DNA of 32,000 nt. Origin: Desulfotalea psychrophila LSv54 (GTDB taxonomy: Bacteria; Desulfobacterota; Desulfobulbia; Desulfobulbales; Desulfocapsaceae). Positions 6,193-20,283 of this stretch are shown one piece after another. The stretch's first letter is position 1. Every line of letters begins with the position of its first letter. The notes below the pieces were generated by a model that was given only the letters and a program-made list of their open reading frames with translations, was not told where the DNA came from and searched no databases. A program made the translations under genes and the position numbers. The stretch spans positions 1,770,001-1,802,000 of the forward strand of contig NC_006138.1 in NCBI RefSeq assembly GCF_000025945.1. The letters are read 5' to 3'.

Positions 6193-9100
6193 ATGGCAAT
6201 CCAACTAGAAAATATAAAGCTGATGGCAAGTCAGCGTCTCACCGATCACGACGATGGCGGTGGTCATATGAGTGGTGCCGAGATCGTTGACGGTAATGTC
6301 AATAACCTCTACCCCGATATCTCTCGCATGGATCGTGTCTATGGTCGGGTCAGTCTGCGTAAGAGTTTTGCCTTTATCGATACCAACGATACCTCCGTTT
6401 ATTCCGGAGCCCATGCGGTGGTCTCCGTGCCGGCGGAAGATCCCAACGTTTCGGTCTGCCTCTTTGAAACGGGCAACCCCACCGATCAACGGGCAGCGGC
6501 TCGTGATTTCATCGAGAGTTATGTCACCCTCGGCCCTCGTATGTCAGCATGGCTCTGGGGCGATCAGCCTGCAGGCTCCCGAACCATAGTGCTTTTTGCC
6601 TCGGTGAAAGCGGATCTGCCTGATGTGGGTTCGGTTCTCTCTCTCTTTAATAACAAGGATAAGAGCGATGAGCAGCAGCAGTATATGCGCATCACCAATG
6701 TTAAGGCTGAGATTCGTTCTTTCACTATTATGGTAGGGGACAAGGAAGTCACCTTCGAGCGTAAAATTATTACCCTGGGCATAGGCAATCCCCTGGCCCA
6801 TACCTTTATCGGTGTAGAGATCCATAATAACGATGCTGAGTCTACCAACGTCTATACCACCATGGTCTCTGATGCCGCCAAGTATTATGGGGTGATGCTT
6901 CCTAAGGCGCCCTTTGCCAAGGGGGATATCAGCCTGCCCGTCAAATCCATATTCACCCATCTGGTTCCATCCGCCCAGGGGGAGAGTCCCATGGTGGATC
7001 TCAGCCCCGGTGAGGCAGGTCCTGTTTTCGGTTCCGGCACGGGCTTTAGTCTCTCTCTGCCATCACAGCATTTTGCTAGCGGGGTACAGATCAACGTGGG
7101 TAGGGCCATCAAACCCGGCACCCTTACCATCAGCCGTCCCTCTGCCGTCCCTGCTCTTCTTGAAGATAATGGCGATGGCATCATCATGGCCGGATCTCAG
7201 CAGTGGGGCACCATCGACTATGGCCTGGGCACCGTCACCTTTGCCGGAGTAAGCAACCACAGGGCTAGCGCCACCTTGGCGTGTGTCATTGGTGTTGCCG
7301 TGCCCATGCTTCCCAACTCGGCCATGGTTAAGGTAGAGCTGGCCAGCCGTGGTTATAACTGGACCATGATTTTAGAGCCACCCCCTCTGCCCGGTACTCT
7401 GAAGGTGGATTATAGAGCCCAGGGCAAGTGGTTTCGTCTCACCGATAAGGGTAAGGGCGAGTTGGTACCGGAAACAGCGGGGGCTGGCACCGGGCAGATC
7501 AACTATACGACGGGTTCCGTCAGCCTTACCTGTGGAGCTCTGCCCGATGTGGGCTCTGCCATCCTCTATCTCTGGGGCAATCCCATTGAGTGTATCGATA
7601 TTGCTGGCAGTACCACGGTGGAGATCCCAGAGCTTAAACACACCCTGAAGAAAAAACCAGTGAAGCCCGGAAGTCTTAATCTTGATTGGAACACCGGCAT
7701 TGATCCCACTGACGGTGCCACCCTTATTGCCAAGATTACCGATGATGGTAATGGCAATCTGGTGGGCGATGGCGCTGGTTGGATCAGGTATTCCACCGGA
7801 GAGCTGGGGTGGCGGGCTACTAAGCTACCTGCAGACGGTGAGAATTATGAGATCACCTATAAGCAATATCCTATCCGTGAAGGCTCTGTCTCTCCCACTG
7901 GCAGTGGTCTTGTCAGTCTTACCCTGCCCGATGGTGATATTGAGCCAGGTTCCGTAGCCTTCGCTGTGCCGGTTACCCTGGGCAGTTTTATCCATGTTTA
8001 CCGGGTGGTCGATGATGGCAATGGTCATCTGTCGGCCCCTGGCTTTAGTAAAAAACAGTCGGTGAGCCATGCCACTTGGCCGGGTTCCTGTTCCATCGGT
8101 GGCTTTAGTGGCACTATCAACTATTTGACCGGAGCTGTGACCCTTGATCTCACCACCATCTCTGGTAGCGAAACATGGAAGGAGCCCTGGTATAAAAAAT
8201 GGACCTATACCAACTCCTATTTTGATCTTCAGTATTTACTTCGTTACAAAGATCCACAGACGGTTCCGGTCTCCTGGACGGGATCTTCCTCTTTGGTGAC
8301 CTATAGCTATCGTCTTACCGCCGCCTCCAGTAGTGCCGGCACCGAGACCCTACCCGTGCCCAATTATATTATCCAGTTGCTCCCTGCAGCAGGCTATGCC
8401 ATTCAGCCCGGCTCCGTTGCCTTTCGCTGGCAGGGTGCCCTCTATATTGATCGTAAGGGTAAGCTCTATCGAAACCCCTCCACGGTCACGGGGGTTGGAG
8501 CTTTGGCAGGCACCATCGACTATAGCACGGGGAGCTGTGCCTGTACCGTCTCCGGTAATGGTTCACCCGAGGTTGTGATAGAGTCCCTGGTTGCCTGCAT
8601 CGGTAAGCAGCAGAGCCTCTCCATAAGCTTTCGCACCCCCGGTGCGCCTCTGCGTCCCGGTTCTATCAACCTTGTCGGTAGTGCTGTCGATGGTAGCCCC
8701 ATCTCTCTGATCGCTGATTTTGACGGCAGGATAGGTGGTGCCGGCGGAGAGGGTTTGGTCAACTACGAGCAGGGTATTGTCACCATTAATTTTGGCGAGC
8801 AGGTGGCAGATTCTCCAGCCTTTGCCGGGCAGGCCTGGTACGATCCCGCCGATGTTAAAGAGGGTAAGGTCTTTAAGCCCATGGGTGCTATGGCCGAGAC
8901 CATCAACTACGGCTGTGTGGTCTACTCCTATATCCCCCTCGATGCCGAGTTGATTGGTCTTGATCCTGTCCGGCTACCCACCGATGGTCGGGTACCCATC
9001 GTGCGTCGTGGTGATGTGGTGGTTGTTCATAATGCTGCCACTGAAACCCTCACCACATCTATTGCTGCAGGGAGCAGTGTGACTCTGGCCAGAGAGCCGG

Positions 9101-13333: not shown

Positions 13334-13672
13334 GTGAGAGATGAACGATTGCAAAAGATGGTTTTGATAAGTTTGGTCTGCCTGTTATTGGTGGCTTTGG
13401 TTGCGCCCTATCAGTTGCCACTTGTAGGCTATAAGCTTGGTCTGGTCTGTCTGGGAGCCTGTACCTTTTTCTGGTTGGATCGGATTGCCTTTCCCTATTC
13501 CCGCCCTGGTTCCTATCTGCTCAAACCATGGCAGGAGGTGGGAGATTTTATTGAAGGTCAGGCTGATTATAAAATCGCCTATGGTTATGAAATGGTCTTT
13601 GCCCTGGTCTGCTGCAGGCGGGCTTTTATGATGAGTATTGGGGGATCTCTGGGCCTTGCCCTGGGACTGTAG
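13334..13672 (+). CDS. Holin candidate (small membrane protein with about 3 hydrophobic helices)
   Basis: The GTG start lies 5 nt after AGGAGG (13323-13328). It encodes 112 aa with hydrophobic stretches LISLVCLLLVALVAP, LGLVCLGACTFFWL and FALVCC...IGGSLGLALGL, and sits immediately upstream of the endolysin. Confidence 0.6.
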   Translation: MRDERLQKMVLISLVCLLLVALVAPYQLPLVGYKLGLVCLGACTFFWLDRIAFPYSRPGSYLLKPWQEVGDFIEGQADYKIAYGYEMVFALVCCRRAFMMSIGGSLGLALGL

Positions 13673-13675
13673 GTT

Positions 13676-14302
13676 ATGAGAGGTTTTATCGTTCTGGTCA
13701 CAGCTTTTCTTGTCTTTTTTTATCCTTTTTCGGGTGTGGTTTTGGCCTCAGTAAAACAACCACCACAGAAGGCAAGGCACTATAAGCGTATCTATATAAG
13801 GACAGCTCATGCCTATTGGGGCTTAGATGCCCCTGTTGCAGATCTTGCCGGGCAGATCCACGCAGAATCGCGTTGGCAGAGTGACGCTACATCATGGGCA
13901 GGTGCCGAAGGTCTAAGCCAGTTTATGCCAGCCACGGCAACCTGGTGGGCTAAGAAGGCCAAGCTTTCGGCTCCTGCACCCACCAAACCCCTATGGGCCA
14001 TGCGTGCCCAGGTCTCCTATATGAAATGGCTCTTTGTCCGTGCTCAAGCTGATACGCCATTCAATAAATTGGGTCTTGCCCAAAAGGCATATAACGGCGG
14101 GGAGACCTGGGTGAGACGTGATCAGAAGCTTGCCCTGGGAAAAGGTCTTGATCCGAAGAGTTGGCGGGATGTTAACCTGGTAAACGCCGGTCGTAGTGCC
14201 AGTGCATGGCGAGAGAACAGAGAATACCCGGAGCGGATCTTCTATAAATTTTCACCTCTCTATAAAAAAGATGGGTGGGGGAGGAGCTTATGTGGTCCAT
14301 AG
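13676..14302 (+). CDS. Endolysin, SLT-family lytic transglycosylase with an N-terminal signal or signal-anchor sequence
   Basis: SLT motifs are present: HAESRW (catalytic Glu-Ser), GLSQFMPATA and AYNGG. The N-terminus MRGFIVLVTAFLVFFYPFSGVVLASV is hydrophobic. Confidence 0.85.
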   Translation: MRGFIVLVTAFLVFFYPFSGVVLASVKQPPQKARHYKRIYIRTAHAYWGLDAPVADLAGQIHAESRWQSDATSWAGAEGLSQFMPATATWWAKKAKLSAPAPTKPLWAMRAQVSYMKWLFVRAQADTPFNKLGLAQKAYNGGETWVRRDQKLALGKGLDPKSWRDVNLVNAGRSASAWRENREYPERIFYKFSPLYKKDGWGRSLCGP

Positions 14303-14721: not shown

Positions 14722-14902
14722 GGTAGAGAAAATAGCTCCGCCGGCCACCATGCTCTACTGTCTCGATGAACCTGTTCTGCCCGAGACGCTTACCGGTGCC
14801 AATGTAGGTGGCTATATTCTTGAGCTCTCTGCTGCCTACCGTGATTGCAAAAGAACCCTGGCTGAAGTTCAACAGTGGGCGGTGGAGGGCGAAGCACCAT
14901 GA
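14636..14902 (+). CDS. o-spanin (Rz1-like outer-membrane lipoprotein)
   Basis: The GTG start lies 7 nt after GGAGG (14624-28). Its signal peptide has lipobox L-T-S-C (Cys18). The start lies 86 nt inside the i-spanin gene in another frame (overlapped architecture). Confidence 0.75.
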   Translation: MKKIALFILLLSTLLTSCAGRPGVVQQIKVEKIAPPATMLYCLDEPVLPETLTGANVGGYILELSAAYRDCKRTLAEVQQWAVEGEAP

Positions 14903-15216
14903 TTGAGCTTGAATATGCTGCCCTAATCAACGCCGTGGTGGCTCTTTGCAGTGGCATGGCCCTGCTGGCTATCTGGCTCGTTGGTGCTACGATCTGGGTA
15001 ACTAGGATAAATATCCGGGTCAACGCCATGGGCGAACGCCAGCCGGTGGAGAAGATAGAGTGCGCCAAACAACAGGTCGATTGCCAGGCCCATATCGATA
15101 AAGAGCTCAGTCATGGTTCCAAACAGTTTGAAGAGATAAAGACCTCAATCAAAGACCTCGACACCAAACTTGAAATCCGCCACAACCTAATGATGGATCA
15201 TCTGCTAAAGGGCTAA
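14899..15216 (+). CDS. Membrane-anchored coiled-coil protein, function unknown; last gene of the late operon
   Basis: The ATG at 14899 overlaps the o-spanin TGA (ATGA). It encodes 105 aa with one N-terminal TM segment (AALINAVVALCSGMALLAIWLVGATIWV) and a charged C-terminal helix region. Confidence 0.55.
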   Translation: MIELEYAALINAVVALCSGMALLAIWLVGATIWVTRINIRVNAMGERQPVEKIECAKQQVDCQAHIDKELSHGSKQFEEIKTSIKDLDTKLEIRHNLMMDHLLKG

Positions 15217-15224
15217 TTATGAGG

Positions 15225-15812
15225 TTATAGGTCAAGGTTTTTAAAGCGGTAGGTCATCGATTGGATAGAGACATCAAAGATAGTTGCAAGCTTTTCTATT
15301 AAGCAACTATTTGTAATTGTGTCTTCCTCATCCCTGATGCGTTCGGCTTGTTTTTGTACAAGACTTCTTGGCATAAGAAGAATTGCCGCAAATTTGTTGG
15401 CCTCGAATTCTAAGGTGTTCCCGTATGATTTGCTTCTGCTTATGCTTTTTCCGGTGTCGACAAAAATTTTCTGATCCGGGCTAGGGAGGATATGTTTAAT
15501 GTAGTGTCCGATTTCGTGTGCTAGAGTGAAACGCTCTCTTGTTTTGTAAGTATGTTCGAGAGGATTGAGCCAGATGAGTGGTTGGCGGTTTTTGTAGGAA
15601 ATACACCCAACATCATAGAGGCTTATATTTTCATCTTCGCAAAAATCAGGATCTAGTGAGCGTGAAATTTTTATGCCAAGTATTGAGGCAATTTTTTCGA
15701 CGTCTATGGGGATAACGCGAGGAAGGTCATGTTCTTTAGAAAGAATGTTGAGGAGCTCTATCGGGCTTACGTCGGAGATTTTGTCTGTGAGATCTTCTAG
15801 AGATGCAGTCAT
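15225..15812 (-). CDS. ImmA/IrrE-family (COG2856, M78-like) zinc metallopeptidase
   Basis: An intact HEXXH motif (LAHEIGHYIKH, DNA about 15505-15519) with the downstream EFEANKFAAILLMP and a C-terminal FDVSIQSMTYRF helix region, all typical of the family. The ATG at 15812 lies 4 nt after the upstream stop with AAGG 9 nt upstream, giving 195 aa. The track start at 15845 would overlap the upstream gene. Confidence 0.85.
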   Translation of the reverse strand: MTASLEDLTDKISDVSPIELLNILSKEHDLPRVIPIDVEKIASILGIKISRSLDPDFCEDENISLYDVGCISYKNRQPLIWLNPLEHTYKTRERFTLAHEIGHYIKHILPSPDQKIFVDTGKSISRSKSYGNTLEFEANKFAAILLMPRSLVQKQAERIRDEEDTITNSCLIEKLATIFDVSIQSMTYRFKNLDL

Positions 15813-15816
15813 TGTC

Positions 15817-16536
15817 TTAAACCTTTTTGGAAATAGTCCAGTCATATTCAGGTTCTATCGAATCTTCTTCCGAAGGATTTTCGCATTTTAGCCTTGAGTC
15901 GACAGTCTCTTGTATCAGTATAGATACTAGCTCATCTTCTAGTAAAGCACTAATGAATACTGTTAAAGAGTCTCTGTCTTTTTTTATTTCATCCGGCAAA
16001 TTTTTGATTAAAGTTTCTATTTCTTCTTTTTTAGTAGTGGCAAACCATTTAGATAAATATATTCCCAGACCTGAAAGCAAGATAGTTATGATAATAAAAA
16101 TGAAGCTTACATATACTATATAAGTGTTAGCTGTGGCCAATACTGCGTCAGCTGTAGGAGGCTTGGCGGAGTGGATATAGACAATTTTGTTAAAGCAAGA
16201 GATAAGGAAACTGCCCAGTATCGCACCAAGTAGTCCGGTTACATAGACGCTCACCCAATATTCTTTTGTCTTTCTGAATTTTGAGATTGAAAGTTGGAGG
16301 TTGGTGAGAAGTTTAAAAAAATAACAAGTGCAAGCTAGAGTCACGATAATTTTAATAAAATCAAAAAAACTTATTTGCTTAAATTCAACTACCACGCTAG
16401 CAATAACGTTTGTTACGCTTGTGGCTAATGTTGCAGAAGTGCTTGTGTTGTAGAGCGTCCAATCAATAAATGCAAGGTTGAGCGCGCACATGCCAAGGAT
16501 GAGAAACGGTGATAGGATTTTTATTTTTTCAGCCAT
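15817..16536 (-). CDS. Multi-pass membrane protein (4-5 hydrophobic helices) with an acidic C-terminal tail; no recognisable family
   Basis: 239 aa from the ATG at 16536; the track start at 16575 is a TTG upstream of the predicted transcription start. Hydrophobic segments include ILSPFLILGMCALNLAFI, FIKIIVTLACTCYFFKLL, YWVSVYVTGLLGAILGSFLISCF and YIVYVSFIFIIITILLSGLGIYL. The C-terminal ~75 aa are Glu/Asp-rich. Confidence 0.7.
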   Translation of the reverse strand: MAEKIKILSPFLILGMCALNLAFIDWTLYNTSTSATLATSVTNVIASVVVEFKQISFFDFIKIIVTLACTCYFFKLLTNLQLSISKFRKTKEYWVSVYVTGLLGAILGSFLISCFNKIVYIHSAKPPTADAVLATANTYIVYVSFIFIIITILLSGLGIYLSKWFATTKKEEIETLIKNLPDEIKKDRDSLTVFISALLEDELVSILIQETVDSRLKCENPSEEDSIEPEYDWTISKKV

Positions 16537-16577
16537 ACATGACCCAGAGTTTATTTTTAGTAAAAAATGATGCAAGC

Positions 16578-16606
16578 CTTATACATACCTTACATATCTT
16601 TGTCAG
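16578..16606 (-). promoter_or_regulatory. Putative sigma70-type promoter for the membrane-protein/ImmA cassette
   Basis: On the minus strand: -35 CTGACA (16606-16601), a 17-nt spacer, then -10 TATAAG (16583-16578), about 40 nt upstream of the ATG at 16536. Confidence 0.45.
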
Positions 16607-16611
16607 CTTTT

Positions 16612-17685
16612 TTATTCTCCTAAGTGATTAATCTTACTAATAGTCTCTTGTCTTCTGCTATCGAGCAGATGGGTGTACCTCATGGTCATGGCCAGGGTGC
16701 TGTGGCCGAGTATATCTGCCACCTCCCTGATATCCACCCCTGCCATGAGCAGGTGGCTTGCGGCCGTATGGCGCAGATCGTGGGGCCGAAAGTGAGGGAT
16801 TTTGTGCCCTGATGCTTCCATCTTTTTTCGTAAACTTCGCCAACAGGAGGAGAATGCCTTGGCCGGGGCGAGTCTGATATCTTTTTGGTTGAGATGGTTT
16901 TCTTTTAAAAAATAATAGCCTGTTGCTTCTGGGCTAACCGTCTGCAGAACCTCTGCAGCCTTTGTGGTCAGGGGCACTGATCTGGGAATACCGCTTTTGG
17001 TTTCGTGTATCCTGAGCGAGAGAGTCTCAAAATTAATATCCTCAGGGCGAAGTCTGGCCACCTCCGATGATCTCATTCCGGTATGCATAAGAAGCAGGAC
17101 AAAGGGGTAAAATTTTGGATTACGGATGTTCTTTGACTCGTCCAAAACGATCTTGGCTTCTGCTGTGGTGAGAAAGCGAGTGTTTCCCTTGTCCGGTGGC
17201 ACCCTGGTGATATCATTCACCGGGTTTTTAATATTAAGGCCCCATATTTTTCGGGCGTTATTGTACATCTTGGAGAGGATGGCGAGCTCGGTACGGATGG
17301 CAGAGTTTGAGTATCCCTCTTTTTGCCGTGTTAGCTGGTATTGAGCTACCAGGGCAGGTCGGATATCCGCAAGGCTGCGGTCAGCGCCCAGTAATCGGGT
17401 GAGATGCCTTGTTGCTCTGCTTTCCAGATCCAGGGTAGATTCTTTCTTGCCTGCAGCTGTGGAGTCTTCGGCATATTTGTCCAGGGCCTCCTGGAGAGAT
17501 ATCTGTTCGGCCAGGCGCGGATCTCCTGCGTCCTTTGCCCGGAGCAGTGCCTCATATTCGACGGCCCATGCCTGGGCCCTACACTTGGTGGGGAAACTCT
17601 TTCTGCGGGGCGTATGCCCTTTTATGCGAATGTGAGCTTCCCATACTATGCCGCTCTTGTTTTCCCTTTTCTTGAACGTTGCCAT
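16612..17685 (-). CDS. int: Tyrosine recombinase / phage integrase
   Basis: 357 aa. The C-terminal catalytic signature is HDLRHTAASHLLMAGVDIREVADILGHSTLAMTMRYTH (R...HxxR...Y), with an upstream MHTGMRSSEV (Arg I region). It is adjacent to a tRNA gene. Confidence 0.9.
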   Translation of the reverse strand: MATFKKRENKSGIVWEAHIRIKGHTPRRKSFPTKCRAQAWAVEYEALLRAKDAGDPRLAEQISLQEALDKYAEDSTAAGKKESTLDLESRATRHLTRLLGADRSLADIRPALVAQYQLTRQKEGYSNSAIRTELAILSKMYNNARKIWGLNIKNPVNDITRVPPDKGNTRFLTTAEAKIVLDESKNIRNPKFYPFVLLLMHTGMRSSEVARLRPEDINFETLSLRIHETKSGIPRSVPLTTKAAEVLQTVSPEATGYYFLKENHLNQKDIRLAPAKAFSSCWRSLRKKMEASGHKIPHFRPHDLRHTAASHLLMAGVDIREVADILGHSTLAMTMRYTHLLDSRRQETISKINHLGE

Positions 17686-17893: not shown

Positions 17894-17980
17894 TGGTGCC
17901 TAGAGCGAGAATCGAACTCGCACGGGCCGAAGCCCACGAGATTTTAAGTCTCGGGTGTCTACCAGTTCCACCATCCAGGC
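17894..17980 (-). tRNA. tRNA-Leu (anticodon UAA), 87 nt, CCA encoded
   Basis: Folded by hand. Acceptor stem is GCCTGGA/TCTAGGC with one G-U pair. Anticodon stem is CGAGA/TCTCG with loop CTTAAAA. It has a long variable arm (TGGGCTTCGGCCCGT) and T-arm GCGAG-TTCGATT-CTCGC. Confidence 0.9.
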
Positions 17981-18137: not shown

Positions 18138-19319
18138 TTAGCCTGCCATCTGCACGATTTTTAGCATATCACGTACTGCCAGATCAAGTCCAGAGAAGAC
18201 GGCCCGGCCGATGATGGAGTGGCCGATGGAGAGTTCTTCAACGGCGTCGATGGCGGCAATGCGGGCGGCGTTGTGGTAGCCCAGGCCGTGCCCTGCATTT
18301 ACCCGCAGGCCGCGTTGGGCGGCTTCTTGGGCGGCTACTACCAGAAGTTGGTACTCCTTCTCCTGAGCGGCTTCGCCTATGGCGTCGCTATATTTGCCCG
18401 TGTGTAGCTCGACAAACTGGGCCCCGATTTCGTAGGCGGCTTCAATCTGCTCTTCGACGGGGTCGATGAACAGGGATACCGGGATGTTCTTGGCAGTCAT
18501 GCGCTCGATGGTGCGGGCCAGTTTTTTCTTCTGGCCGGCTACATCAAGACCGCCTTCGGTGGTCAGCTCCTGGCGTTTTTCAGGGACCAGGGTGATCATG
18601 TCAGGTCGGGTGTTCAGGGCAATTTTGATAATCTCCTTGTTGGCTCCCATCTCAAAGTTCATTTTGGTTTTGATGGTCTGGCGGAGGAGGATGATATCTC
18701 TGTCCTGCATATGTCGACGATCTTCACGCAGGTGGACAACAATGCCTGCCGCGCCGGCCATCTCGCAGATGGCAGCTGCGGCAACCGGATCCGGTTCGGT
18801 GATGCCGCGGGCCTGGCGGATGGTTGCCACGTGATCGATATTAATAGCTAATTGGGTCATCTTGAATCTCCTGTTAATTGCATATTCTTTCAATAGTACC
18901 TGTTCTTTATCTTCCATGAGCAGGGCGTCTTCCGGACCACGTTCGTGGTCATACCCTACAAGATGAAGTATGCCGTGTACCATGAGCCAGTTAAGGCGAT
19001 GGCTTATTGTCTGTCCGTACTCTATGGCCTCCCGCATGGCAGTGTCAACCGAGATGATAATATCGCCAAGCTCGTGCACCGGTATCTGCTGGAGGAACTC
19101 TTCGCTTCCCTCGGCAAAGGGAAAGGAGAGGACGTTGGTGGGGCCCTTTTTCTCGCGGTAATGTTCGTTGAACCAGGTCATCTGGGCATCGGAGACAAAG
19201 ACAATATTTAGATTGTGATCATTTACCCCAAGTTTTGTCAGCACCCAATGGGCAAAATGCTTTGCCTCTTTTTGGGGGATGGGAAGGCTAATCTCTTTGC
19301 ACTGTAGTTCTACTGCCAT
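18138..19319 (-). CDS. ybeY-pdxJ: In-frame fusion ORF: YbeY endoribonuclease domain (N-terminal, about 150 aa) plus pyridoxine 5'-phosphate synthase PdxJ (C-terminal, 240 aa)
   Basis: YbeY motif HGILHLVGYDH. The PdxJ region (LAINIDHVATIRQARG...VHLREDRRH...LVPEKRQELTTEGGLDV...NAGHGL...ELSIGHSIIGRAV) is close to E. coli PdxJ as I recall it. No stop codon separates the two parts. An internal AGGAG plus ATG sits at 18860. The ATG at 19319 is 1 nt after the ybeZ stop. Confidence 0.85.
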   Translation of the reverse strand: MAVELQCKEISLPIPQKEAKHFAHWVLTKLGVNDHNLNIVFVSDAQMTWFNEHYREKKGPTNVLSFPFAEGSEEFLQQIPVHELGDIIISVDTAMREAIEYGQTISHRLNWLMVHGILHLVGYDHERGPEDALLMEDKEQVLLKEYAINRRFKMTQLAINIDHVATIRQARGITEPDPVAAAAICEMAGAAGIVVHLREDRRHMQDRDIILLRQTIKTKMNFEMGANKEIIKIALNTRPDMITLVPEKRQELTTEGGLDVAGQKKKLARTIERMTAKNIPVSLFIDPVEEQIEAAYEIGAQFVELHTGKYSDAIGEAAQEKEYQLLVVAAQEAAQRGLRVNAGHGLGYHNAARIAAIDAVEELSIGHSIIGRAVFSGLDLAVRDMLKIVQMAG

Positions 19320-19320
19320 G

Positions 19321-20283
19321 TTATTCCTCTTTCTGCTCTTGTTCGTAGGCGTGGATGATTTTTTGCACCAGGGGGTGGCGGACGACATCGGCCTTATCAA
19401 AGTGACAAAAACCGATATCCTTGATCTGGGCCAGGAGCTTCTCTGCCTGGAGCAGACCTGAATGTTCCTTGTTGGGCAGATCCACCTGGGTTACGTCGCC
19501 TGTGATTATGGCCTGTGAATCAAAACCAATTCTGGTGAGGAACATCTTCATCTGTTCTCGGGTGGTGTTTTGGGCCTCATCAAGAATGACAAAGGCGTTG
19601 CTCAGGGTGCGGCCACGCATAAAGGCCAGGGGGGCAACTTCAATAACACCCCGTTCAATGAGGTCGGCTGTCTTTTCCAGGCCAAGCATATCCTGGAGGG
19701 CATCGTAGATCGGGCGCAGATAGGGATCAACCTTATTAGCCAGGTCTCCCGGCAGAAAGCCCAGCTTTTCCCCGGCCTCAACAGCAGGACGGGTGAGAAT
19801 GATAGAGCGCACCAGGCCACTGGCAAGGGCCGAGACAGCCATGGCCACGGCCAGATATGTTTTGCCTGTTCCCGCCGGGCCGATGCCGAAGACAATATCC
19901 TTATTGCGAATTTCGTCGATATAAAACTTTTGATTGGTAGTTTTGGGAGAGATTATCCGGTTTTCCGTGGTGACGTAGACCTTGTCGAGAAATATCTTGG
20001 CAAGATCTGCCTGGGGGCTAGACTCAAGTATTTGAATGCCGAAGGCAACGTCGGAGCTGTAGATCTGATGGCCCCTGCCTATGAGAGCATAGAGCTGGCG
20101 CAGGAGGTTGCCTGCCAGTTCTACACTGTGCGGCATGCCCTCAATGTTCAGCTGGGTACCCCGGGTTTTGATTGTCACCGAACAACTATGCTCTATGGTG
20201 CGGATATTACAGTTGTGCTCACCGTAGAGCAGGTTTGTCTGCTGGTTATCCTTAAAGGATATCTCTTCCTGAATGGCTTTCAT
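19321..20283 (-). CDS. ybeZ: PhoH-like ATPase (YbeZ/PhoL family)
   Basis: Walker A motif GPAGTGKTYLAVA. It shows the conserved synteny of lying directly upstream of ybeY. The ATG at 20283 gives 320 aa and is preferred over the TTG at 20322. Confidence 0.85.
   Translation of the reverse strand: MKAIQEEISFKDNQQTNLLYGEHNCNIRTIEHSCSVTIKTRGTQLNIEGMPHSVELAGNLLRQLYALIGRGHQIYSSDVAFGIQILESSPQADLAKIFLDKVYVTTENRIISPKTTNQKFYIDEIRNKDIVFGIGPAGTGKTYLAVAMAVSALASGLVRSIILTRPAVEAGEKLGFLPGDLANKVDPYLRPIYDALQDMLGLEKTADLIERGVIEVAPLAFMRGRTLSNAFVILDEAQNTTREQMKMFLTRIGFDSQAIITGDVTQVDLPNKEHSGLLQAEKLLAQIKDIGFCHFDKADVVRHPLVQKIIHAYEQEQKEE

Follow-up and report, generated by a model that had tools for sequence, protein, structure and literature searches.

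The 32,000 nucleotides (nt) of the Desulfotalea psychrophila LSv54 chromosome considered here (contig NC_006138.1, positions 1,770,001 to 1,802,000; hereafter the window) hold, inside a prophage, a cassette of two minus-strand genes, DP1603 and DP1602, which encode a membrane protein and a zinc metallopeptidase of the M78 type and which may together act as a toxin-antitoxin (TA) or abortive-infection module (Table 1). Both genes lie exactly where the initial annotation of this DNA had placed them, 4 nt apart and with products of 239 and 195 amino acids (aa), and RefSeq calls the same proteins. The reading frame of DP1603 is open further back to a TTG at 16575, a start that would give a protein of 252 aa, and DP1602 has an alternative in-frame ATG at 15845 that would give one of 206 aa. 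The very short spacer between the genes suggests that their translation is coupled. On the opposite strand the cassette holds merely open reading frames (ORFs) of 40-98 aa, and no helix-turn-helix (HTH) domain was found in either protein in a Pfam scan at E≤1, nor in a structure search with a model of DP1602. The cassette therefore has no partner of the XRE/HTH kind, as had been claimed.

The cassette occupies a slot between the lysis genes of the prophage and its integrase, again as originally described: holin, SLT lysozyme and Rz/Rz1-like ORFs come before it, and the integrase and a tRNA-Leu gene, the probable attachment-site side of the prophage, come after. Its base composition is as deviant as had been reported, with 38.1% GC in the cassette against 51.4% in the prophage part of the window (50.9% in the integrase gene and 48.4% in the host part), and this island of 38% GC inside a prophage of 51% GC points to recent acquisition. 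The claim of a sigma-70-like promoter belonging to the cassette fared less well. The proposed hexamers and their spacing are indeed present, but the final T of the -10 element is missing, and our promoter scan, which demands a T at position 6 of the -10 hexamer, did not call the site.

Table 1. Features of the DP1603-DP1602 cassette, its surroundings and related loci. Positions are those of the window unless a locus handle (L and a number) is given; TM, transmembrane.
Feature	Position	Strand	Remarks
DP1603, membrane protein, predicted toxin/effector, 239 aa	15817-16536	-	ATG at 16536; exact match to WP_041277790.1 (RefSeq: hypothetical)
Conserved core of DP1603, residues ~93-225	15862-16260	-	Family-defining; two TM helices, ANTYIV, K169, helical tail of ~60 aa
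Intergenic spacer, 4 nt	15813-15816	-	DP1603 stop TAA 15819-15817; DP1602 ATG 15812-15810
DP1602, M78 (ImmA/IrrE/CapP-like) zinc metallopeptidase, predicted antitoxin/regulator, 195 aa	15225-15812	-	WP_049785038.1 (RefSeq: ImmA/IrrE)
HEIGH zinc-binding/catalytic motif, H99-E100-I-G-H103	15504-15518	-	Read from sequence
Candidate sigma-70-like promoter, CTGACA-17 nt-TATAAG	16578-16606	-	In the 75-nt gap from integrase stop to DP1603; weak
Prophage tyrosine integrase	16612-17685	-	Pfam Phage_integrase 2.2e-31; co-oriented with and directly upstream of the cassette
tRNA-Leu(taa)	17894-17980	-	ARAGORN
Holin	13334-13672		Lysis gene
SLT lysozyme	13676-14302		Followed by Rz/Rz1-like ORFs, then the cassette
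113-aa ORF	14875-15216	+	After the Rz/Rz1-like ORFs
420-aa ORF	18138-19400	-	YbeY-like, then PdxJ-like
Single-helix partner variants with M78 gene	L045 1-2085; L002 719-1962		L045, Helicobacter prophage BK070149
Pair with split protease gene	L022 5977-7051		Pseudomonas metagenome-assembled genome; protease ORFs 6474-6857 and 6854-7051
Pair of 116- and 66-aa genes	L021 5309-5840; L023 5312-5843	-	Methylococcales
Milagro gp45-gp46 and neighbours	L040 4944-8633		OM638609
P2-like M78/membrane pair	L042 3025-4201		Peduovirus P2 variant NC_070905
P2-like M78/membrane pair	L046 277-1520		Pseudoalteromonas phage ACA1 gp1-gp2
P2-like M78/membrane pair	L047 422-1449		Burkholderia phage Carl1 gp1-gp2
P0006 (181 aa) and 443-aa protein	L003 3091-4971		Also L004-L006

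DP1602 matches the Pfam family Peptidase_M78 (PF06114) at 1.7e-14 and carries both the HEIGH motif and the motif LEFEANKFAA, so that its original assignment to the ImmA/IrrE proteases is borne out. Across 30 partner proteases taken from distinct pairs, H99, E100 and H103 of the first motif and E135, A138 and N139 of the second (EFEAN) are invariant, as are R92, R94, D119 and R126. The top PADLOC profile is capP (2.5e-25, 87 bits), which is matched over positions 7-152 of 242; 13 RmrA profiles are also matched, in their peptidase part only (roughly positions 170-300 of 357-400), the best of them at 1e-12 and none above 46 bits. CapP (7t5t) is likewise the nearest PDB entry by sequence (6.3e-5), and it is the best Foldseek match (8.6e-8) of an AlphaFold2 model of DP1602 that consists of a single protease domain (predicted local distance difference test score, pLDDT, 85). 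IrrE/PprI structures come next (IrrE 3dti, 1.1e-4), and the whole length of the query is covered. The structural targets are proteins of 240-278 aa, 45-85 residues longer than DP1602, and the TM-scores normalised by target length are 0.39-0.44. Because the capP and RmrA profiles are matched only in part and the structural targets are longer, DP1602 is, as far as the model and profiles tell, a bare M78 protease domain that has neither an HTH domain nor a GAF-like C-terminal domain.

The hydrophobic helices and acidic tail ascribed to DP1603 were recovered in a Kyte-Doolittle scan, which gave four hydrophobic segments (residues ~7-29, 55-78, 97-119 and 140-162) followed by a 77-aa tail with 19 acidic (D/E) versus 11 basic (K/R) residues. 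A word-indexed protein search with DP1603 returned only the query itself. Exhaustive HMMER searching of 1.84 billion cluster representatives, by comparison, retrieved 64 proteins at E≤0.001, nearly all of which are 150-190 aa long and match only residues ~93-225. DP1603 is best described as a conserved core of two helices that is preceded by an N-terminal extension of two to three helices (residues 1-92) and followed by a helical tail that is predicted to be cytoplasmic. The first helix of the core carries a GxxG pattern and the second opens with (D)AxSxANTYIVFTT, within which A136-N137-T138-Y-I140-V141 is near-invariant; we refer to these proteins as the ANTYIV family. An invariant lysine, K169, follows the second helix, and the helical tail of about 60 residues ends in a variable charged stretch. 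The AlphaFold2 model of DP1603 is all-helical, with a pLDDT of ~76-87 over residues 91-220.

No close relative of known function emerged from these comparisons. DP1603 has no significant match in Pfam, NCBIfam, PADLOC or the PDB sequences, its two weak matches in PHROGs are both to families of unknown function, and a Foldseek search with its model gave no structural match (best E 3.2 in the PDB and 0.28 in BFVD). The family as a whole is covered by no model in Pfam, NCBIfam or PADLOC, with no recurrent PADLOC match among its 64 members, and it is without a match in the E. coli genomes and plasmid collection searched. Members whose annotation was checked, Burkholderia pseudomallei proteins among them, are all 'hypothetical' bar one with an automatic UniRef name, 'MotA/TolQ/ExbB proton channel domain', which we reject since a Pfam scan of ten members gave no MotA_ExbB match at E≤10. 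Partner variants of 146 and 201 aa with a single helix (L045 and L002) still precede an M78 gene, which suggests that a single transmembrane helix with a helical cytoplasmic tail is the smallest unit conserved.

A profile of the ANTYIV family identified 17 loci in a genome scan that sampled one genome per species, distributed over Gamma- and Betaproteobacteria, Desulfobacterota, Campylobacterota, Chlorobi and Bacteroidota, and 15 viral contigs in IMG/VR, where the D. psychrophila prophage itself has no match. Co-occurrence of the two families had been put forward as a test of the pairing, and the outcome is clear: searched with a protease profile, 34 of the 35 sequences read have an M78 gene directly downstream of the membrane gene and on the same strand, and the sole unpaired sequence (L023) ends at a contig edge 91 nt past the membrane gene. 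The spacing is between -8 and +31 nt in 28 of these 34 pairs, with a 4-nt overlap, typical of coupled translation, in 12. Approached from the other gene, the two closest homologues of DP1602 (47% and 37% identity) likewise sit behind a member of the ANTYIV family, and further pairs are found in Burkholderia phage Milagro (gp45 and gp46, both hypothetical), in Massilia and in a Helicobacter prophage. Given that an M78 gene follows the ANTYIV member so regularly, with stop and start codons usually overlapping or near-touching, DP1603 and DP1602 are, by this comparative measure, a real functional pair and not chance neighbours. Clustering of the neighbouring ORFs at 34 loci yielded no third conserved gene, and no HTH domain is present in ten immediate upstream neighbours of the pair, which lets us reject the idea of an overlooked third gene of the HTH type.

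Two variations on this arrangement were seen. A metagenome-assembled Pseudomonas genome (L022) has an intact membrane gene upstream of a protease gene that is broken into two ORFs. In two Methylococcales sequences (L021 and L023) a conserved minus-strand pair of genes encoding 116 and 66 aa lies divergently upstream of the module; neither has a Pfam match, and they may be a separate small TA-like pair.

The genomic settings of the module are varied. It lies beside integrases in the window and at L012, L013, L017, L027, L031 and L034, and the order integrase, membrane gene, M78 gene is common to the window, L031 and the Helicobacter prophage. In viral contigs L026, L028 and L035 it is directly downstream of, and co-oriented with, a CI repressor gene (HTH_3 plus Peptidase_S24), and in P2-like phages (L032, L034, L037 and L039) it is found a few genes upstream of the portal and terminase genes. 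Restriction-modification or CRISPR (clustered regularly interspaced short palindromic repeats) genes are its neighbours at L001, L010, L013, L019, L033 and in Milagro. Elsewhere it stands alone, inserted between alaS and an aspartate kinase gene or between flgI and flgK, or it lies beside an insertion sequence (IS) transposase or VgrG. In the cultured P2-like phage Milagro, gp45-gp46 lies between the integrase and a restriction cassette (Vsr endonuclease, C5 methylase and Eco29kI), two candidate defence cargos thus standing side by side. Taken together, the contexts fit mobile defence or TA cargo, in keeping with the defence or exclusion hallmarks that the initial annotation had listed, and they fit a module that moves as a unit.

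The same contexts bear on an alternative that had been raised from the start, in which DP1602 would cleave an XRE-type repressor encoded outside the window and DP1603 would be an unrelated superinfection-exclusion neighbour. The order of integrase, membrane protein and metalloprotease does recall the lysogeny modules of Gram-positive phages, the repressor of the D. psychrophila prophage lies outside the window, and gp1 of phage ACA1, a relative of DP1602, has been annotated as 'antirepressor' by its depositors, from an HHpred match only. Both the solitary chromosomal inserts and the self-cleaving CI repressors nevertheless argue against such a role: the sites at alaS and the kinase gene, in the flagellar genes, at the IS element and at VgrG have no inducible element, and the CI proteins of L026, L028 and L035, with their Peptidase_S24 self-cleaving domain, need no ImmA. 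No HTH gene is conserved nearby, and the association of the two families, with its coupled translation, would be hard to square with unrelated neighbours. The co-occurrence seen across these sequences largely refutes the anti-repressor reading, which we regard as very improbable.

The initial annotation held that the cassette matches no named system, and had set RosmerTA aside on the ground that its antitoxin, RmrA, combines HTH and peptidase domains. Comparison with Gordonia phage Kita overturns this. Kita RosmerTA (RmrA_D25 and RmrT_D5) is a validated TA pair (Ernits et al., 2023; PMC10440598) whose antitoxin has 178 aa and only a Peptidase_M78 domain as listed by the authors, so that the objection based on the HTH domain falls. 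The toxin, RmrT_D5, is small and membrane-spanning and acts by depolarising and permeabilising the membrane, and the pair defends against some coliphages with a narrow range (PMC10440598). DP1602 is 35% identical to Kita RmrA (gp32) over 168 aa (5e-19), and the profile built from the partner proteases scores the Kita protein at 7.6e-29. In both cases a stand-alone M78 protein of ~180-195 aa without a listed HTH domain is encoded next to a translationally coupled small membrane protein, and in both phages the pair is located between late genes (tail or lysis) and the integrase region. Because the combination of an HTH-less M78 antitoxin and a membrane toxin is already known from Kita, the cassette is not a new class. 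Of the traits of RosmerTA in the broad sense (an M78/ImmA-domain antitoxin plus a variable toxin; NetFlax node D25), the cassette has an M78 domain related to known RmrA proteins and a conserved, adjacent, co-directional partner gene. Toxicity of that partner and its neutralisation by the M78 protein would be expected by analogy with Kita RmrT_D5 and the rmrA deletion described below, and an anti-phage role may be read from the prophage cargo slots and the restriction-modification or CRISPR neighbours. Canonical RosmerTA has been described as a Zn-peptidase 'antitoxin' with a variable 'toxin of unknown function', and in that original work an rmrA deletion was not transformable, possibly reflecting toxicity (Millman et al., 2022). 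DP1602 matches the peptidase part of the canonical RmrA profiles, but their N-terminal half, with the HTH domain, has no counterpart in its 195 aa, and the full architecture of ~360-400 aa is absent.

Proteases of this kind are also found with other partners. In P2-like phages, the gene for a stand-alone M78 protein is directly followed by one for a membrane protein of a second family, which has two transmembrane helices (L042, L046 and L047). The proteases, of 161-171 aa, are 30-36% identical to DP1602 and their genes are coupled to that of the membrane protein, much as in the cassette; the membrane family, however, is separate from ANTYIV (hhalign probability 0.4%), is encoded after the protease and not before it, and is itself uncharacterised. 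The three membrane proteins resemble one another in a stretch towards the C-terminus, which in the P2 variant reads LSELIMGIVDYIKGKLSK. Another close relative of DP1602, P0006 (181 aa), is followed after a 3-nt gap by a 443-aa soluble protein that has no Pfam match and lies beside type I restriction-modification genes, and these two may be another system of an M78 protein plus an unknown partner. The occurrence of the same kind of protease with differing partners is, as read from these loci, partner swapping, a hallmark of TA systems; such swapping around an ImmA hub has been described for TA networks (NetFlax study, PMC10440598).

Better known relatives of the protease work differently. DP1602 shares the fold and the HExxH plus downstream Glu arrangement of the proteases of CapH-CapP, ImmR-ImmA (ICEBs1) and DdrO-IrrE (Deinococcus), but these cut an adjacent XRE-type repressor, whereas the cassette has no HTH gene and none is conserved at the homologous loci. 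CapP and IrrE moreover have a GAF-like C-terminal domain that DP1602 lacks. CapH-CapP regulates cyclic oligonucleotide-based antiphage signalling systems (CBASS), and there are no CBASS genes near DP1603-DP1602. A resemblance of another sort is to cI-rexA-rexB of phage lambda: in three viral contigs the pair lies downstream of cI in what corresponds to the lysogen-expressed rexAB slot, and one partner is a multi-pass membrane protein. Here, however, the soluble partner is a metalloprotease, and in the window the pair follows the integrase and not cI. PADLOC left DP1603 and its family unmatched, and the matches that it listed for DP1602 are to M78-type profiles; whether it includes models for RexA and RexB was not checked.

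We favour the reading, to which we give a probability of about 0.55, that DP1603-DP1602 would be a self-contained, horizontally mobile, Rosmer-like TA or abortive-infection module carried as lysogen-expressed prophage cargo. DP1603 would be the effector, an inner-membrane protein whose helical, acidic tail faces the cytoplasm and which would permeabilise or depolarise the membrane when unrestrained. DP1602, a cytoplasmic protein made from the same transcript, would hold it harmless, most likely by attaching to the cytoplasmic tail and cutting it. When another phage infects, or when the cassette is lost, DP1602 would be removed or inactivated, and the freed DP1603 would kill or arrest the cell before the invader could complete its cycle. 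It is by analogy that we take DP1603 to be toxic and DP1602 to control it, and the tail cleavage, the triggering events and a resistance to phages are inferred in the same way: that DP1603 would be toxic and DP1602 restraining follows from the homology of the protease to RmrA and from the behaviour of Kita RmrT, and the invariant active site suggests restraint by cutting of the tail rather than by binding alone.

Several observations weigh against this proposal. The strict conservation of the active site would fit an activating protease equally well, and the prophage's own repressor lies outside the window. The membrane protein may be tolerated alone in L022, if the split protease there is not an assembly error. 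DP1603 and the ANTYIV family have no detectable homology to RmrT_D5, PADLOC's RmrT models do not match DP1603 and are not recurrent among the 64 family members, and the gene order is reversed, with the protease first in Kita and the membrane protein first here. PADLOC also ranks DP1602 higher with capP than with any RmrA profile, and standard defence finders would therefore probably not call the cassette RosmerTA. The membrane proteins of the two pairs are built in opposite ways: RmrT_D5 has 119 aa, with a soluble N-terminus and C-terminal helices, while in DP1603 the helices come first and a cytoplasmic tail forms the C-terminus. We reject kinship of DP1603 with either Kita RmrT_D5 or the P2-like membrane family (no homology; hhalign probability 0.4% each).

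The active site and the L022 locus lead to a reading in which the protease switches the membrane protein on. DP1602 would then be an infection sensor, and a phage cue would cause it to cut an inhibitory cytoplasmic tail from DP1603, producing a pore. CapP is activated by DNA damage signals and bacterial gasdermins are activated by proteolysis, and the best sequence and structure matches of DP1602 are to the signal-activated CapP and IrrE. Invariance of the catalytic residues in all 30 partner proteases is in line with this idea, as is a tail made up of a conserved helical domain of ~60 aa and a variable charged end, and an intact membrane gene accompanied by a broken protease gene, as in L022, is what would be expected if the uncleaved protein were harmless. 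That genome is metagenome-assembled, however, and the frameshift may be an assembly error; DP1602 does not have the GAF-like domain of CapP and IrrE, as the partial capP match and a TM-score of 0.44 indicate; and in the only validated relatives it is the M78 protein that is the antitoxin, with a partner that is toxic alone. On balance, we think activation possible but unlikely. We know of no member of the ImmA/CapP protease family that cuts anything other than transcriptional repressors. If activation were nonetheless the true mechanism, M78 proteases would gain a second, non-transcriptional class of substrate, and the ANTYIV family would be a new class of membrane effector, subject to gasdermin-style proteolytic activation of a protein already resident in the membrane.

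The roles might also be exchanged, with DP1603 as sensor and anchor, functionally the antitoxin, and the protease as effector. A perturbation of the membrane on phage entry or lysis would in that case free DP1602 to cleave host or phage targets. COG2856 proteases were predicted to be the toxic partner of such pairs (Makarova et al., 2009), and strict pairing with coupled translation fits any stoichiometric complex. The most conserved features of the membrane protein, D131 and ANTYIV, are placed immediately ahead of the final transmembrane helix and at its beginning; if the tail is taken as cytoplasmic, they fall at the non-cytoplasmic end of that helix, where an external signal could be sensed. 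On the other hand, the characterised M78 proteases (ImmA, IrrE and CapP) are narrow and partner-specific, the validated RmrA proteins are antitoxins, and the sharing of one kind of protease by unrelated small membrane proteins looks like swappable toxins around a hub antitoxin. We judge a tethered protease effector to be distinctly improbable, more so than an activating protease, and retain the restrained membrane toxin as our preferred interpretation.

Two further genes in the window deserve brief mention. The 113-aa ORF that follows the Rz/Rz1-like ORFs on the plus strand encodes one hydrophobic helix and a coiled-coil-like tail; its stop codon is 8 nt from the convergent stop of DP1602, and no terminator-like site was called between them. 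Beyond the tRNA gene, a single minus-strand ORF of 420 aa appears, by eye only, to be YbeY-like in its first part (HGILHLVGYDHE metal site) and then PdxJ-like, and may be a fused gene, or two genes that no stop codon separates.

New here are the ANTYIV membrane family, how widely it is distributed and the constancy with which it accompanies one protease clade. A full-text literature search found no description of the ANTYIV/M78 pair, although an unnamed listing in NetFlax is possible. The module is widespread, and with its membrane component covered by none of the models in Pfam, NCBIfam and PADLOC, it would probably escape the defence finders now in use. Set beside Kita RmrTA and the P2-like pairs, it indicates that HTH-less proteases of the ImmA type have repeatedly teamed up with unrelated small membrane proteins, and this raises the question of what an ImmA/CapP-type protease does in the absence of a repressor substrate. 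From the invariance of the active site we predict that DP1602 cleaves the tail of DP1603. For the phages concerned, the pair is a candidate lysogen-expressed exclusion or abortive-infection cassette that is found at several prophage cargo positions: by the integrase, after cI and, in P2-like phages, close to the genes for portal and terminase.

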